Source: Neophaeotheca triangularis (lineage: Eukaryota). From it: a stretch of 64,000 nt of DNA. Positions 35,558 to 41,269 of this stretch are shown in pieces (within the stretch, counting starts at the first letter, position 1; each line of letters starts with the position of its first letter). Position numbers and translations under genes: made by a program. The notes under the pieces were generated by a model, which was not told where the DNA came from, searched no databases, and was given only the letters and a program-made list of their open reading frames with translations. The stretch spans positions 1 to 64,000 of the forward strand of contig BAAIJX010000034.1 in the NCBI GenBank assembly GCA_054600435.1, in the 5' to 3' direction.

Positions 35558-36961
35558 TTACCTCGCCCCGGTTCCATCTTCGACCCGCAATCCCCCTTCT
35601 TCCTCAACACCCACGTCCCCGACCTCCAAAACCTGCTCCCCTTCCTCTTGCTCTTGCTCTTCCTCCTCCTCCTCCCTCTTCTCCTCCTGATTTACAAAAA
35701 GAAAACTCACCAAAACAACCACCGCGCCAACCCAATAAACCCACCCACTAGTCTGCCCATTAATGACAACCTGCCCGATCAAGCTGAGTGGTATAGTCAT
35801 ACTCAACCCGACCGTGACAACAATCGGACTCGTCAAGAGGACGGCATACGCCCAAGCCAAATCGCTCACCAAACTGGCAGCGGAATTGCACAGCACAATA
35901 GCCGTAACGCGGCCCGTGGGCGGTAGTTCGAAAGGCTCGATGCCTGTGTAATGGAGGACGACGAGCCCGGGCCAGAGGAGGAGGACGTTTATGAGACCGA
36001 CGAGGCCGAAGAAGAGGGGCATGTCCACGCGGGATTCGTCGCCGATGCGTTTCTTCATGAAGACGGCGTAGAGGCCGTACATGACGGCGGAGAGGAAGGC
36101 GAGGGCGTCGCCGACGGCGATTTCGCGGTGGGTTTTGGAGGGGAAGTCGCCGCGGTGGGAGCGGTCGTTGTTGCTGCCGCTGAGGTCGATGGTGGAGATT
36201 AGAATGATGCCCGTGAGCGAGGCCAGCACGCCGAGGAGTTTGCGGAGTGTGAAGCGCTCGACGCGGAAGAGGGCGCCGAAGAGGAGGGTGAAGACCGACG
36301 AGGTAGAGGTTAGGATTGTGCTTGAGGCCACTGTCGTGTATTCGAGGCACGCGGCGACGAAGTAGTTGGCGATGAACCACAGGGCGCTGAACTCGAGGGA
36401 GACGCGAGCGGTCGCTGCTAGAGAGAGTTTCCCTGATGCCGTGAGTGGGGGAAAGGCAGTGTTGGGTGTGCGTGCCCCCAGCAGCAGTTCCTGCGAACTC
36501 CCCACGTCTCTTGCGCGATCCTTAACCGCAACATCCCCCTCCTCCTCCCCTTCCTCCTCCTGCCTCAAGACCCCATACCCCTCTTCCCTCCCCTTCCGCC
36601 TAAAGATGCCCCCGTCAAACAATCTCCGCAACTCCTCCCTCAGTTCCCCCGGCCTCCGCAAAGCTTTCCCAACAAGTATAGGCCCGAGCGGCACAACAAA
36701 GAATGCCGTGTTGATGTACGTGACAAAGTACGGTTTGCTATAAGTGTTGTCGGCGAAGATCGTGGACGCCAGGAAGTTGGAAGCCGTCCAGAGGAAGACT
36801 GTGGCGGCTAGCAGGCCCAGACCAACGGCGCGGCGCCATTTCCCTAGGTGCGAGAGGATGCCGTTGGCGGTGCTTTGGGCGCTTTGGCGGCGGGGCAGGT
36901 GGGGGCGGTTGGGGTGAGAGGGACGGGCGGGTTGAGCGGTTTGGGAGGTAAAGTCGGCCAT
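35558..36961 (-). CDS. EamA/DMT-family transporter (SLC35F5 / Thi74-like)
   Basis: About ten hydrophobic helices; KPYFVTYINT, LWFIANY, TTVASSTILTSTSSVFTL, TVGLSMTIPL. Confidence 0.9.
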   Translation of the reverse strand: MADFTSQTAQPARPSHPNRPHLPRRQSAQSTANGILSHLGKWRRAVGLGLLAATVFLWTASNFLASTIFADNTYSKPYFVTYINTAFFVVPLGPILVGKALRRPGELREELRRLFDGGIFRRKGREEGYGVLRQEEEGEEEGDVAVKDRARDVGSSQELLLGARTPNTAFPPLTASGKLSLAATARVSLEFSALWFIANYFVAACLEYTTVASSTILTSTSSVFTLLFGALFRVERFTLRKLLGVLASLTGIILISTIDLSGSNNDRSHRGDFPSKTHREIAVGDALAFLSAVMYGLYAVFMKKRIGDESRVDMPLFFGLVGLINVLLLWPGLVVLHYTGIEPFELPPTGRVTAIVLCNSAASLVSDLAWAYAVLLTSPIVVTVGLSMTIPLSLIGQVVINGQTSGWVYWVGAVVVLVSFLFVNQEEKREEEEEEQEQEEGEQVLEVGDVGVEEEGGLRVEDGTGAR

Positions 36962-37810
36962 TTTTGGCGACAAGAGGCTGAAGTGGTTGTTTAACAGGCG
37001 AATGTAGCGGATGAGAGGGGTGGGTGGAGAAGATGATAGGACGGCCTGCGTCGGTGTCTTTGTCGCTGTCTTTAACGCTCAGTCGGAGTCTCCAGTCAAT
37101 AAGCAGTAAACCAAACCAGCCGTGTGAGTAGGTCCATATGCAATTGCTAGCAACAGTACAGGTAGGCAAGGTACATAGCTAGTAGGTAAAGAAGAAGGAC
37201 AAGAAGAGTAGGATGTTATGTTGGAGAAGGAAACAAGGCAGATAAGAGTAAGTACCCAACTTACTACTGTACTTAGTACCTTAGTACCTTAGGGCGGTCG
37301 TTGCGATAAGATGGATGGGATGGGCGCGGGCTGTGGCTCGCGCGTGCCACTTCCCGCTGCCTACTAAGCCTAGGACTGGATCCTGCCGCTGCCGCTGCCC
37401 CTGTCACAACTGCGGCGAGTGCCCAGTCCTCAGAGTCCCGGGTGGGCGTCGGGTGTGTGAGACTGTGAGCATGACAGGTTGATTCGCCTGAGACTCCGTC
37501 CATCGTGACCTACTACAACATGCACAAAATCGTGAAACCTGCTCTATAGCGATCAAGCAAGGCGGGCAGGATGTTGGCGTGCCCAGTGTACAAGACAGAA
37601 CAGACTTCCAACAGCGAGAGCAGAGCAGAGCAAAGCAAATACCGAATTACTAACGACGGGGTATCAACAATAAAAGCGAACCTTCGCAACCCTCTCAACC
37701 CACTCAGCCAATCGCTTCCAGCAGACTGCGCCCCCCCAAAAAAAACGCCTCCGAGAGTAGACGCAACTCGACCATGACTTCGTGACCCCCTCCCCCAACT
37801 CAAAAATGGC

Positions 37811-39727
37811 TCACCACCCAGCATCCACCTCACCCTCACTATCAGACTCCAAACCCTCAAACCACGCACTCCCCAAAACCTCCCCAATCGTCAATCTCAA
37901 ATCCACATCCGTCTCAAAACAGCCCCTCACCAATTCTATAATCAGCTCGCTATTCCCGGCACCTACTGTCGCAGTGTGCCGCAGAGCTTCGACATCCCAA
38001 TCGGCCTGCATGATCGACTCGACAGTCTTGGCCGGCATGGGGTGGCGGAAGGGTAACTCTCCCGTGCAAAGGGCGTAAACGACTACACCAAATGCCCAGA
38101 CGTCGCCGGCGGTCTCGAAGAGTTTTCGGGAGACTGACAATCCTTTGGGGGAGGCATACTCCAGCGTGCCTATGACGGAACTCATAGTAGGGCGGTGATG
38201 GATACGGGAGTCGGCCATGACGAGGGAGTCGAGCTGGTTGTGCTCAGCTGAAGCGCCGTCGTCGAGCGTCATGCTTTCCGACTGTAGGAAGTCGGCGAGT
38301 CCGAAATCGCAAAGGCGCAAATTGCCGCCTTCGGACTGAGCGTCGGCGGCCGACATGTCGATGAGACAGTTTTCGAGCTTGACGTCACGGTGGCAGACGC
38401 GGATGTCTTCGTGCAAGTAGCGAAGCGCGCCGGCGAGCTGGTGGGCGTAGCGTTTGGCTAGCTGCGGGGCCAAACCTTTGCGACCGTTGTTTTCACCTGC
38501 CGCCGCGCGAGCGGAGAGGAGAACGTCGTAGAGGCTGCCGCCGTGATTGAGGTCCATGACGCAAAAGGTGGCAAAGTCGGTGTCGTAGACGACGTGCAGG
38601 CCTAGGATGTGGCGGTGTCGGAGGTACTTCCATACGCCTACTTCGTGGAGTAATTCTTCCTGGCATTGTTCGTTTTCTCGCTCGCCTTTGCCTTCAATGG
38701 CTTTGCGAACGATTTTGACTGCGCGGAGGATGCGCGAACCGTTTTTCTCGTCGATGCTATGGATCTCTTTGATGGTCCCGAAACCGCCCGAGTCGATGGT
38801 ACGGCCTATTATGTATTCATTTTCAAGCCCTATCGACTGTCCCTCGTCGTCTGGGTTTGGTTCGGGGGGTGGCTCGCTCGTGTTCTTGTTGCTCCAGGTT
38901 GAAAGGAAGGCTTGTGCAGGAGAGGCGGAGTTATTTGTTGACGCTGGCTTTCGAGCCGAGTTTCGGCGCGGACCCATGCCCGGGATGCGAGTTGCACGTG
39001 CTCCGCCCCGACGCGCCGAGACTGAGGTCAAACTTCCATTTCGTGACAAAGGATTCTGGTATTCGAGGTTGGGGGAAAGCAGAGGCGAATCGCCCGTGCC
39101 TGCTTCGACGCCTTCGGTGATTGTTGCTTGTGGCGATATTGTAAGTCTAGCATTCAGGCTCTCGATCGACGAGGTCATGTGGTGGTCAGGAGCATCTCTC
39201 GACGGCGTCTCGCCATCATGGCGTGGCGACATGATCGATGAAGATGTCTGGAATGCCATTTGCGATCGGATTTGGTCGCTTAGTGTCTGATCCGCCGACT
39301 GTCCGTTCGATCGGTTGTCCTGCATAAAACGGGTTGGTACAGAGTCACACTGATCGTTTTCAAGTTGCGCGGCGAGGCCGTTGGACAGGCTCACCGGTGA
39401 AGGGGTTCGTCTTGAACTCTGTGGGGTTGTAGACGAGTCCTCCCCCGTCGTTCGCCTCATTCGATTCATCTTCTGTTGGTTTGGTATCGCCATCTCTTCT
39501 TGGTGGACTTCTCCCTCTTCCTTTTTGGGACCTTCCTGTTGCTCCGAAGATCTGTTGCGGAGTAGGCGTGATAGGTACCCGCTTTCCGTCGTCGGTGAGC
39601 GCATGGGTCCCAAAGGAGATGCTTTTACCTCTAGATTTGAAATTGGCTTGCAGAGCTTCGAGCTCGGCGGACTTTTGCTCGTTTCGGCCGGCGGAGAAGG
39701 CCCGCCATGACATGCCTGACCCTTCAT
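37811..39727 (-). CDS. Ser/Thr protein kinase, Nnk1-like
   Basis: IDSGGFG, AVKIV, HRDVKLENCL, LCDFGLA, GTLEYASP, DVWAFG. Start uncertain (39727 or a later ATG), or spliced to the upstream ORF. Confidence 0.9.
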   Translation of the reverse strand: MKGQACHGGPSPPAETSKSPPSSKLCKPISNLEVKASPLGPMRSPTTESGYLSRLLRNRSSEQQEGPKKEEGEVHQEEMAIPNQQKMNRMRRTTGEDSSTTPQSSRRTPSPVSLSNGLAAQLENDQCDSVPTRFMQDNRSNGQSADQTLSDQIRSQMAFQTSSSIMSPRHDGETPSRDAPDHHMTSSIESLNARLTISPQATITEGVEAGTGDSPLLSPNLEYQNPLSRNGSLTSVSARRGGARATRIPGMGPRRNSARKPASTNNSASPAQAFLSTWSNKNTSEPPPEPNPDDEGQSIGLENEYIIGRTIDSGGFGTIKEIHSIDEKNGSRILRAVKIVRKAIEGKGERENEQCQEELLHEVGVWKYLRHRHILGLHVVYDTDFATFCVMDLNHGGSLYDVLLSARAAAGENNGRKGLAPQLAKRYAHQLAGALRYLHEDIRVCHRDVKLENCLIDMSAADAQSEGGNLRLCDFGLADFLQSESMTLDDGASAEHNQLDSLVMADSRIHHRPTMSSVIGTLEYASPKGLSVSRKLFETAGDVWAFGVVVYALCTGELPFRHPMPAKTVESIMQADWDVEALRHTATVGAGNSELIIELVRGCFETDVDLRLTIGEVLGSAWFEGLESDSEGEVDAGW

Positions 39728-40550
39728 TCTTCTTGGGCTTCTCCACTCGCTCTACCTGATATTTCTGATCTCGAGATTGGTCGGGTGATAGGCTCTTAGC
39801 CGAGTCTGGGGGTGTTGAGCTGCTGCGGGAGCTTCCGTCGTCGACACTGTTTGTGCGGGAGTCTACAATAGCCTCTTCGTCACTGTCGCTGTCTTCGAGG
39901 TACTGTGTCCGTGCGAAGGGCGAGGAGATGCTGCTCTTGGAAGGCCTATGCTGCGCCCCTGAGGATGATCGTGTATTCTTCTCAGCCCTGAATGGTGAGC
40001 TCTGTCTCCTACTAGCGGCGTCCCTCTGGCTGCCCTTTCTTGGTGGAGCTGGACTAGGCCGGCGATCACCTCTCGAGTTCGATGCAGCCAAATTATCCCC
40101 TTCCTCGTCCTCACTGTCGTTGAGGTACTTTGTGCCTGCAAAGGGCGAAGCAACGCTACTGGCCGAAGGTCTCGTCTGACTCGCGACCACTTCTCGGTCC
40201 AATGAAGAATGCTTGGCAGCTCCCTCAGTGATTGGGGAGGTGGGAAGTGTATCCGGCGCAGGACTAGGTCGACGCTGGTCAGCACGTTTTGCGCCTGCCA
40301 CTAATGCGTCATGCTTGTGCTTGTCGAGTTTCGGCGAAGATGTTGGTGCTGGTGTCGATGTCGAGGTCGTTGCAGCGGGAACGTTGCTGTCCGCGTCCGA
40401 CGACGTGTTCTTGCTTGATCTACTTTTTCTCGGTTCGTCTTCGCTATCATCTTCGAAACCGGTTGCAAAAGGGGTTGATCGGCCACGACGTCTGCCCGTC
40501 TCGGCACGGAGAGCTTTGAAATGCTTCTGAATGCTGGCTTGGTCTGCCAT
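39360..40550 (-). CDS. Ser/Arg-rich low-complexity ORF overlapping the kinase frame
   Basis: About 396 codons open from ATG 40550 (MADQASIQ), with repeated S.PFA..DS.DE and RRPSP motifs. Either a separate protein or the first exon of the kinase gene. Confidence 0.65.
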   Translation of the reverse strand: MADQASIQKHFKALRAETGRRRGRSTPFATGFEDDSEDEPRKSRSSKNTSSDADSNVPAATTSTSTPAPTSSPKLDKHKHDALVAGAKRADQRRPSPAPDTLPTSPITEGAAKHSSLDREVVASQTRPSASSVASPFAGTKYLNDSEDEEGDNLAASNSRGDRRPSPAPPRKGSQRDAASRRQSSPFRAEKNTRSSSGAQHRPSKSSISSPFARTQYLEDSDSDEEAIVDSRTNSVDDGSSRSSSTPPDSAKSLSPDQSRDQKYQVERVEKPKKNEGSGMSWRAFSAGRNEQKSAELEALQANFKSRGKSISFGTHALTDDGKRVPITPTPQQIFGATGRSQKGRGRSPPRRDGDTKPTEDESNEANDGGGLVYNPTEFKTNPFTGEPVQRPRRAT

Positions 40551-41269
40551 ATACGTACAAAGCGGGGGTGCGACGGTGAGCTTCTTTGGATGACTCTGAG
40601 CGCTTGGGATGTGTGGGTCTGGCTGACAGGTTTGATCGACGAGTGCGGCTTCAAGACGGTTCACGGCAAGGGACGCTGGTGGTGGTGGTGGTGGTGGTAG
40701 GATCGAGGGGATGAGGAGGCGGGGGCTGAATGGAGGGGCAGGGCTGGCGGTGGGTTTTGTAGCAGGGGATGACAGGTAGTAGTAGTATTCGACAGCAAGC
40801 AGCGCGTCGCCAAGCAGGATGATGGTCACATGTCGAAGCGTCCACAGTAGTGAGGCAGTGAAGCAGGCGTTGACGGTACAGTAGTAGTGAGATAAGGTAG
40901 GTAGACGGGTGGATTATCCATGGATGATGGCTTTGTCCAATACCCTACCCTGTAGGTTGTATGTAGGAGGTGTGCGGCCAGAAAAATAATGCTGTACCCA
41001 CAAAGTCTAGCCCCCCTCATCAGCCACTGAATCCTCCCCGCACCACATATATCATGCATGCACTACGTATATCAGATCAGGTATCTCTACAGGTGAGTAA
41101 TAGTGTCTACTACTCTAATTATGTCTGTAACGTTAATATACATGGATGATTTAGTAAGACCCGACGGCTCCATCAGATAAGGTACACCTACTGTAACTTA
41201 CCTAGTGTTCTTACAAGTCGCCGTGGGGGAGTGCACGTGACAGATGCCAAGGCAACAAGAATTGTCCCA

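Follow-up and report, generated by a model that had tools for sequence, protein, structure and literature searches.

The window analysed here is the whole 64,000-nucleotide (nt) stretch taken from Neophaeotheca triangularis (contig BAAIJX010000034.1, positions 1 to 64,000), and its minus strand carries two overlapping open reading frames (ORFs), a long ORF1 and a protein kinase ORF. ORF1 is read in frame A from an ATG at 40550 and, if left unspliced, ends at a TGA at 39362-39360; the kinase is read in frame B (A+1), which is open from 39751 to the stop at 37813-37811 and has its first ATG at 39727. Both frames are free of stops over 389 nt (39751-39363), as an earlier note on this DNA had described for some 390 nt, and the minus-strand positions which that note gave for ORF1, the kinase frame, two candidate donors (GTAGAG at 39755 and GTGAGC at 39394) and one acceptor (TTTTATGCAG, ending at 39320) are all correct. 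Joined to this acceptor, the donor at 39755 would remove a 436-nt intron (3n+1) and fuse ORF1 to the kinase in frame, and the donor at 39394 would remove 75 nt (3n) and give a product ending in GIPDIFIDHVATP at a TGA at 39218-39216. It is at this second TGA that a +1 frame break between the two ORFs is conserved, together with a zone in which both frames are kept open. The features of the locus are as follows.

40548..40556, minus strand: ORF1 start codon, ACGTAT ATG G, with T at -3 and G at +4, a weak context
39395..40550, minus strand: ORF1 exon 1 (frame A), 385 codons plus 1 nt, ending ..FKTNPFT-G
40301..40450, minus strand: short frame-B ORF, 49 codons long, containing another in-frame ATG (40312) three codons ahead of the stop
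39728..40309, minus strand: ATG-free stretch, 582 nt without an ATG in any frame
39752..39754, minus strand: last frame-B stop (TAG), within the conserved codons CAG GTA GAG
39395..39727, minus strand: exon-1 part of the frame-B ORF, from the ATG at 39727 (A at -3), overprinting conserved ORF1 codons
39320..39394, minus strand: predicted spliceosomal intron of 75 nt, phase 1, ACC G/GTGAGC ... TGAC ... TTTTATGCAG/GA
39219..39319, minus strand: exon-2 overlap zone, frame A (G)QPIERTVGGSDTKRPNPIANGIPDIFIDHVATP, frame B DNRSNGQSADQTLSDQIRSQMAFQTSSSIMSPRH
39231..39254, minus strand: ORF1 C-terminal motif IPDIFIDH, family consensus [LIV]PDI[RKF]I[DE][DNH]
39216..39218, minus strand: ORF1 stop TGA in the context CCA TGA T; frame B continues GAT GGC GAG (DGE...)
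37811..39217, minus strand: kinase ORF past the ORF1 stop, frame B, 468 codons plus the stop at 37813-37811
37859..38809, minus strand: protein kinase catalytic domain (Pfam PF00069, E=1.2e-38)

Exon 1 of ORF1 encodes an acidic, Ser-Pro-rich sequence with two internal repeats, ..SPFAGTKYL.DS.DEE and DRRPSPAP, each present twice; no Pfam family matched ORF1. Past the intron, frame A reads GQPIERTVGGSDTKRPNPIANGIPDIFIDHVATP up to the TGA at 39218-39216, the conserved tail of ORF1 in the window being IPDIFIDHVATP, and frame B reads onward as DGETPSRDAPDHHMTSSIESLNARLTISPQ. The kinase ORF includes the conserved blocks MTSSIESLNARLTISPQ (ATG at 39178) and SPAQAFLSTW. Its PF00069 match (133.4 bits against a cut-off of 31.7) covers residues 315-631 of the translation of 37814-39751 on the minus strand, and the HRDVKLEN and DFG motifs are visible in that translation. 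The name Nnk1 comes from the earlier note; what is shown here is a Pkinase domain, and the names given by Atlas are generic kinase names only.

Protein searches recovered orthologues in the Dothideomycetes, from Saxophila, Hortaea, Friedmanniomyces, Vermiconidia, Elasticomyces, Zasmidium and Pseudocercospora. All 11 long orthologues align to the window as two pieces, one in frame A and then one in frame B. The first piece starts from about 40532 and ends near the donor (39366-39396) in nine of them, and in the remaining two it runs on in frame A through stops, to 39225 and 39027; the second piece begins between 39118 and 39451. The best-conserved part of ORF1 (FSAGR...KSISFGTHALTDDGKRVPI...FKTNPFTG) is in frame A in all 11, and since the orthologues align there in frame A, the doubly open stretch 39751-39363 is ORF1 coding sequence. 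Substitutions within the exon-1 overlap of 13 close loci fall at frame-A third positions (for example 0, 0 and 9, or 2, 0 and 12, per 30-nt window). The exon-1 part of the frame-B ORF (39395..39727) shows no protein-level constraint in relatives, though the frame is kept open. The claim that both frames read like protein in the overlap is thus not borne out, relatives varying at frame-A third positions throughout exon 1. An overlap of frames A and B does exist, but the junction is not to be placed at 39360-39751, where the earlier note had seen it; it lies 100-140 nt downstream, in exon 2 (39319-39216). In related loci the kinase lies in +1 wherever its frame could be tested (23 of 23), and the exon-1 stretch evolves as frame A only.

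The frame layout and its conservation could be observed directly in metagenome contigs, a scan of which gave 74 loci, about 25 of them orthologues with usable upstream DNA. Exon 1 ends ..FKTNPFT-G in each of the 14 loci inspected by eye, of which 12 have the phase-1 intron and two (L008 and L021) are contiguous. After the junction, frame A in these loci reads G[EDQ]PV[RK]R ... [LI]PDIRI[DE][DN]xx(x), followed by a stop and by the kinase in +1. Motif and stop are found in the window and in 24 metagenome loci, two of which do not enter the count of testable kinase frames, L044 because it breaks off too early and L010 because of an extra TAG. Motif and kinase anchor are 106 to 136 nt apart, with nine different spacings, each of them 3n+1. 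The stop always stands 3-5 codons past the motif, in 12 contexts, after nine different last sense codons and with TGA, TAG and TAA all in use. The tail motif also ends five database proteins, namely three annotated ORF1-only models (from Cercospora, Rachicladosporium and relatives) and two unnamed ORF calls. Both parts stand fused in one frame in the distant relatives L024, L025 and P0033, as well as in Hortaea models (..NPFTGEPVRR.. plus kinase). Two loci deserve separate mention. In L010 (4093-4300) the in-frame TAG interrupts the kinase ORF between EGMAV and H, where the relative L015 has GAG, and this is either a decaying copy or a contig error. In L016 (contig of 2549 nt) the ..Y.P..FKTNPFTG segment and the intron are missing, and its ORF1 of 1188 nt has three ATGs besides the start.

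A one-base assembly error, which the earlier note had raised as a possible source of the overlap, does not account for the break. A second DNA sample of the same organism matched 37700-40668 with 35 substitutions and 0 indels, and was identical over 39320-39394. This intron contains a branch-like TGAC, two frame-A stops, no frame-B stop and a frame-B ATG at 39325. It occurs in 11 related loci at the same position and in the same phase-1 Gly codon, with a length of 60, 73, 75 or 76 nt. Exactly this intron is lacking in L021 and present in L044, two loci that differ by 5 mismatches in 1438 nt (99.6-99.7% identity), and judged by these comparisons a real spliceosomal intron lies at 39394-39320. 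For L008, genomic loss of the intron is possible because its nearest intron-bearing relative, L013, is only 92-94% identical. Both intron-less loci retain the ORF1 stop and the +1 kinase. Because the RNA-like, intron-less L021 keeps the stop and the kinase in +1, it is likely that no splice repairs the frame.

As the earlier note had found, no short intron joins frame A to frame B: all GT..AG pairs of 40-520 nt with a length of 3n+1 were scanned, and none had usable signals. A 70-nt intron across the stop (GTCGCC..CGAG, 39230-39161) was rejected as well, for it would delete the conserved MTSSIE block, and L008 and L021 keep the region. Of the switch between two donors proposed earlier, one half stands, in that the kinase-less product of the 39394 donor, ending in GIPDIFIDHVATP, is the conserved form. 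The 39755 donor is unsupported, and an intron from GTAGAG would remove the best-conserved part of ORF1. An RNA-library contig runs unbroken across 39475-39722, inside this would-be intron, which is weak evidence. Contigs from the RNA libraries X3 and X4 match the window at 38524-38968, 39475-39722, 40079-40230 and 40351-40559. Both libraries are marine metatranscriptome runs; four of the five contigs match with at most one mismatch and the remaining one with 2 over 152 nt, a near-identity indicating that the organism or a very close relative was present in these libraries.

The surroundings of the intron have some further peculiarities. The pattern TNPF..G.P..R occurs twice in frame A, 75 nt apart (39320-39412), as TNPFTGEPVQR across the donor and as TNPFYAGQPIER across the acceptor, and the intron has the length of one unit of a possible old tandem duplication. 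An origin of the intron by a 75-nt tandem duplication was set aside, for the nucleotide self-match at offset 75 was reached by 36 of 100 shuffles. Translated in frame B, the intron agrees with the relative P0002 at 16 of 25 positions (by eye) and is of equal length; this identity is as high as that of the flanking exon in the same off-frame and is unusually high for an intron.

Substitution patterns near the junction show selection on both frames. Among 14 distinct 24-nt versions of the motif (39231..39254), variation falls as 6, 3 and 14 over the frame-A codon positions, and this third-position bias indicates purifying selection on the tail as a frame-A peptide. Read in frame B, the motif stretch gives a SLTS.STMSPTSD-like sequence that is part of the single-frame protein P0033; frame B is therefore ancestral at this place and the tail has been overprinted on it. 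A frame-B similarity of the type AFQTS.S was discarded as evidence for frame-B coding past the intron, being a by-product of the frame-A motif PDIRIDD. Directly after the stop, changes in clade G1/G2 amount to 22, 3 and 1 by frame-B position over +0..+62, and differences between L015 and L016 to 1, 3 and 11 by frame-B position, with 7 synonymous versus 4 non-synonymous codons. These patterns show coding in frame B from the ORF1 stop onward, with constraint beginning at the stop itself, upstream of the conserved MT.S Met. Before the stop (-84..-31), changes in clade G1/G2 lie at frame-B third positions (13, 3, 3). In addition, frame B has no stop in the exon-2 zone of any of the 12 lineages, where a total of about 11 would be expected when each peptide is kept and codons are drawn from the locus's own usage (for L010 an estimate from 42 codons only). 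The probability of finding no stop is 0.05-0.78 per lineage, and the product of 8e-7 is an upper bound on significance since the lineages are related.

The overlap in exon 1 is real, and its statistical weight there is borderline. When exon-1 codons were permuted and each shuffle was scored for a +1 frame staying open over the last 359 nt of the exon or more, 15% of the shuffles reached this length in the window, 7-15% in ten relatives and 0.4% in one relative. In most loci the last +1 stop falls on one shared, conserved codon pair (-359/-353 relative to the donor), so that the loci are not independent, and exon-1 openness of frame B was dropped as independent evidence from each locus. Under synonymous resampling, with the peptide kept, the codons redrawn and the sum taken over nine related, non-independent loci, frame-B stops in the last 80 codons of exon 1 number 0 against 10.4 expected.

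Start context and ATG distribution are likewise matters of direct observation. At position -3 of the ORF1 ATG all 16 loci have a pyrimidine (13 T, 3 C), with -4, -2 and -1 varying; among the other long ORFs of the window about 4 of 14 have a pyrimidine at -3, a crude baseline. The G at +4 is kept and tempers the weakness of the context. Between the ORF1 start and 39727 the window has only two ATGs, both in the 49-codon frame-B ORF. More generally the first ~820-970 nt of ORF1 are ATG-poor, with one short frame-B ORF in the first 823 nt of the window. Compared with an expectation from peptide plus codon usage, out-of-frame ATGs in eight loci number 13 against 41.7 from the ORF1 start up to the first open frame-B ATG; the rest of exon 1, on its 3' side, has 33 against 18.8. 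From 39727 on, the ATGs of the window are mostly in frame B (within exon 1 also at 39604, 39493, 39469 and 39460), and every ATG from 39604 to 39232 is in that frame. Internal in-frame Met codons of exon 1 number 0 in ten loci and 1 in two (n=12); over the whole of ORF1 further loci have 0 (L016, L018), 1 (L017) or 2 (L011). In the fused outgroup L024, by comparison, 504 nt contain 11 further ATGs (n=1). A 3-codon frame-B ORF lies ~215-245 nt past the ORF1 start in all 16 loci, and one to four short frame-B ORFs are left per locus in the ATG-depleted stretch.

The explanation put forward here, tentatively, is that the locus consists of two overlapping ORFs and that the kinase may be started at a frame-B AUG inside ORF1 through leaky scanning or reinitiation. 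An ancestral single gene, comprising the N-terminal region and the kinase, would have changed frame in its linker and so become two overlapping ORFs in one transcription unit. ORF1, of 419 amino acids once the 75-nt intron is removed, would extend from a deliberately weak AUG at 40550 to the TGA at 39218-39216, with IPDIFIDHVATP as its new, selected C-terminal tail. The kinase ORF would be translated on its own from a frame-B AUG; the one at 39727 would give 613 amino acids after splicing, and later AUGs are possible. Ribosomes would either scan past the weak ORF1 AUG and through the AUG-poor ORF1, or reinitiate after the tiny frame-B ORFs, and ORF1 would serve as a giant overlapping upstream ORF setting the amount of kinase. 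The openness of frame B, the weak -3 position and the depletion of ATGs fit ribosomes that pass the first AUG and start in frame B inside ORF1, where leaky scanning may bring them. A junction without frameshift signals also counts for overlapping ORFs. Of the mechanisms listed in the earlier note, the overlapping upstream ORF is therefore favoured, an internal promoter and a +1 frameshift stay under consideration, and alternative donors are unsupported.

Several observations weigh against initiation inside ORF1. Most lineages keep a frame-B ATG ~94 nt past the ORF1 start, with A at -3 in the window, and the ORF of 15-50 codons that it opens would intercept leaked ribosomes; the matching ORF is absent in clade G1, L012 and L014. 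Reinitiation after ORFs of 15-50 codons is usually poor, and ~820 nt of scanning is long for a cellular mRNA. The persistence of this intervening ORF in most lineages also separates the locus from the rice tungro bacilliform virus (RTBV) and GCN4 type of arrangement discussed at the end. The N-terminal region is Met-free in the fused Hortaea, Peltaster and P0033 models too, which traces the in-frame part of the AUG desert to the protein itself rather than to the split. The other exon-1 bins of the stop analysis scatter widely (16 versus 5.1; 0 versus 4.2) among loci that are related, and the pair L010/L015 lacks the frame-B pattern upstream of the stop (8, 5, 6). The X3 and X4 RNA contigs leave the junction at 39013-39474 uncovered, and run X17 matches over 47 nt only. 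Moreover, a fused Hortaea model is nested in the split clade (97% support in the SH-like approximate likelihood ratio test, SH-aLRT, on a quick tree), which fits a normally made fusion protein at least as well.

Such a fusion protein would result from a programmed +1 frameshift at or just before the ORF1 stop (CCA UGA U; 39221-39215), a possible but rather doubtful event in which some of the ribosomes would skip the U and read GAU GGC GAG. The product would be an N-terminus-kinase fusion of ~887 amino acids, with the ancestral architecture, and the nascent peptide PDI.ID... could be the stimulator. The constancy of the +1 relation in 23 of 23 testable loci speaks for this, as does the place of the stop, 3-5 codons behind a strongly conserved peptide. 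Frame-B constraint also begins exactly at the stop, before the first downstream Met. Frame-B ATGs are missing near the stop in some relatives, there being none for 90 codons upstream of it in L016 and none in exon 2 of L019 and of the Elasticomyces model; in L024, L025, P0033 and the nested Hortaea model, both parts are in one frame. Most lineages, on the other hand, do carry frame-B ATGs upstream of the stop, and the frame is open there. There are precedents too, in the +1 shift of antizyme at a stop (PMC1874602, PMC4505036) and in PaYIP3 (PMC3777964). Against it, no shift site is conserved, with nine last sense codons and all three stops used within one order-level clade. No 3' structure is evident (fold z = -0.66 in the window; no Rfam match), and immediately past the stop there is free variation at the third positions of frame B (22, 3, 1). 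The upstream openness of frame B, the -84..-31 pattern of clade G1/G2, the weak AUG and the ATG distribution would be left unpredicted. The more specific form of this idea is somewhat less probable still: a +1 frameshift conserved over an order-level group of Dothideomycetes would be driven by the nascent peptide [LIV]PDI[RK]I[DE][DN]xx(x) in the exit tunnel rather than by a slippery site or an RNA structure, and one mRNA would be the source of two products, a regulator lacking the kinase and a fusion kinase of full length.

The openness and constraint of frame B upstream of the stop could also be explained by separate mRNAs, if a promoter inside ORF1 or the intron gave the kinase a shorter transcript of its own, on which the first AUGs are those of frame B, and ORF1 had become an independent protein. 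In keeping with this unlikely alternative, all window ATGs from 39604 to 39232 are in frame B, and public annotations include two adjacent genes, such as B0A51_17604 and B0A51_17603 of Rachicladosporium, and the ORF1-only models of Cercospora. The weak ORF1 AUG and the upstream depletion of ATGs are not predicted by it, and the RNA-like L008 and L021 span exon 1 into the kinase, a weak argument as an assembler would merge overlapping transcripts. It is improbable that alternative splicing switches the frame, whether from donor 39755 to acceptor 39320 or to an acceptor 3n+1 nt further downstream. The first of these routes does give an in-frame fusion (436 nt), but would delete the most conserved 120 residues. 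For the second, a suitable AG is found at +13, +16, +19 or +25 in G1 (except L005), G2, L002, L010, L015 and L019, and the models of Elasticomyces and Zasmidium switch to frame B directly behind NPF[ST], consistent with such an acceptor; by our estimate, however, an AG of this kind is expected by chance in about 40% of lineages. The only +1-shifting AG in exon 2 of the window, GAGAG at 39196, lies past the stop and has no pyrimidine tract; L001 has such AGs only at +79 and +88, L005 has none nearby, and the intron-less L008 and L021 use the normal acceptor. Artefact or decay, in the form of a one-base assembly error or a young pseudogene, is very improbable. A single break between gene halves does resemble an indel error, and L010 has its extra in-frame TAG in the kinase ORF, but the independent DNA sample shows 0 indels, the same break occurs in 24 other loci from many lineages, and both ORFs are under purifying selection. 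Taken together, overlapping ORFs with initiation in frame B remain the explanation tentatively preferred here.

In at least 12 lineages, then, standard translation that starts at the first AUG of the spliced mRNA cannot produce this signalling kinase; relatives include Cercospora, Zasmidium, Friedmanniomyces and Rachicladosporium. To our knowledge, a need for non-standard decoding is very rare among nuclear cellular genes, and its retention across a large clade is rarer still. If the ORFs overlap as proposed, kinase dosage may follow initiation at the upstream ORF, and the locus would be a very long-range leaky-scanning or reinitiation switch; if a frameshift takes place, it would be a new frameshift site with an unusual stimulator. 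The locus is also a snapshot of gene fission: what was once mere read-on in the wrong frame has come under selection as a C-terminal motif, overprinted on the old frame.

Public annotations patch the locus in at least five incompatible ways, with invented introns, skipped conserved blocks or two separate genes. For instance, Friedmanniomyces models follow frame A as far as the end of LPDIRIDD and then leave out 85 nt, among them the conserved frame-B block; more is left out in a third model from this genus. In Saxophila the model does not leave frame A and includes IPDIRINNIA. Proteins that comprise ORF1 alone and end in the tail are annotated in Cercospora (three species, with models of 407 amino acids), Rachicladosporium, Cryoendolithus and Oleoguttula. 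In Rachicladosporium, B0A51_17604 corresponds to ORF1 and ends in SIPDIKIGHVTAT, and the neighbouring B0A51_17603 is the kinase, starting MTASIDSL. Such inconsistency indicates that, for this gene, the kinome lists and orthologue tables of these fungi probably contain errors.

Outside the two ORFs, a (CCA)7-like run (ccaccaccaccaccaccacc) is present on the minus strand at 40690-40720, ~150 nt 5' of the ORF1 ATG, and is likely to belong to the 5' leader or the promoter. The next gene downstream (35558-36961, minus strand; MADFTSQTAQP..., ~467 amino acids) is by appearance a multi-pass membrane protein, and its start has A at -3 (CCAAAA ATG G), unlike that of ORF1.

Literature searches on frameshifting in fungi and Pezizomycotina and on Nnk1, together with passages of a 2016 review of recoding, turned up no account of a frameshift or split in this kinase. 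In antizyme, seven P-site codons are used across eukaryotes, with UGA as the stop in ~97% (PMC1874602), and some fungal antizyme mRNAs have a nascent-peptide stimulator (PMC1874602; PMC4505036). The present locus resembles antizyme (OAZ1/SPA) in having ORF2 in +1, overlapping ORF1, with a stop at the junction, and clade G1/G2 has the classic UCC before the stop. It differs in the length of ORF1, ~420 codons here against 17-86 in antizyme, in the variable last sense codon and stop with no 3' structure evident, in a frame B that is open for hundreds of nt upstream, and in the conservation of the product made without a shift.

Among published fungal cases the nearest is PaYIP3, a Rab-GDI displacement factor whose frameshifting is conserved in Pezizomycotina and was inferred to be +1 in Capnodiales, with poor signals there (PMC3777964). 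In PaYIP3 most species have a U-rich slippery site and a pseudoknot, and the products were shown by tagging (PMC3777964). Like PaYIP3 as described there, the present locus is a cellular fungal gene with a short and a long form from two frames across a large clade; unlike it, no slippery site or structure was seen here, and the locus is known from sequence alone. With Nnk1 of S. cerevisiae and the single-frame fungal orthologues (the name again being that of the earlier note) it shares a C-terminal Ser/Thr kinase domain behind a long disordered N-terminal region, to which the split clade adds the PDIRIDD tail and the frame break. Among systems with unusual initiation, ORFs I-III of RTBV are translated by leaky scanning over AUG-poor upstream ORFs, and GCN4 and cpc-1 depend on reinitiation after very short upstream ORFs. 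The locus is similar to these in its weak first start, its long and nearly AUG-free stretch followed by a downstream ORF, and its 3-codon mini-ORF before an AUG-free spacer, and differs from them in being a cellular fungal gene whose ORFs overlap by ~437 nt in the spliced mRNA.

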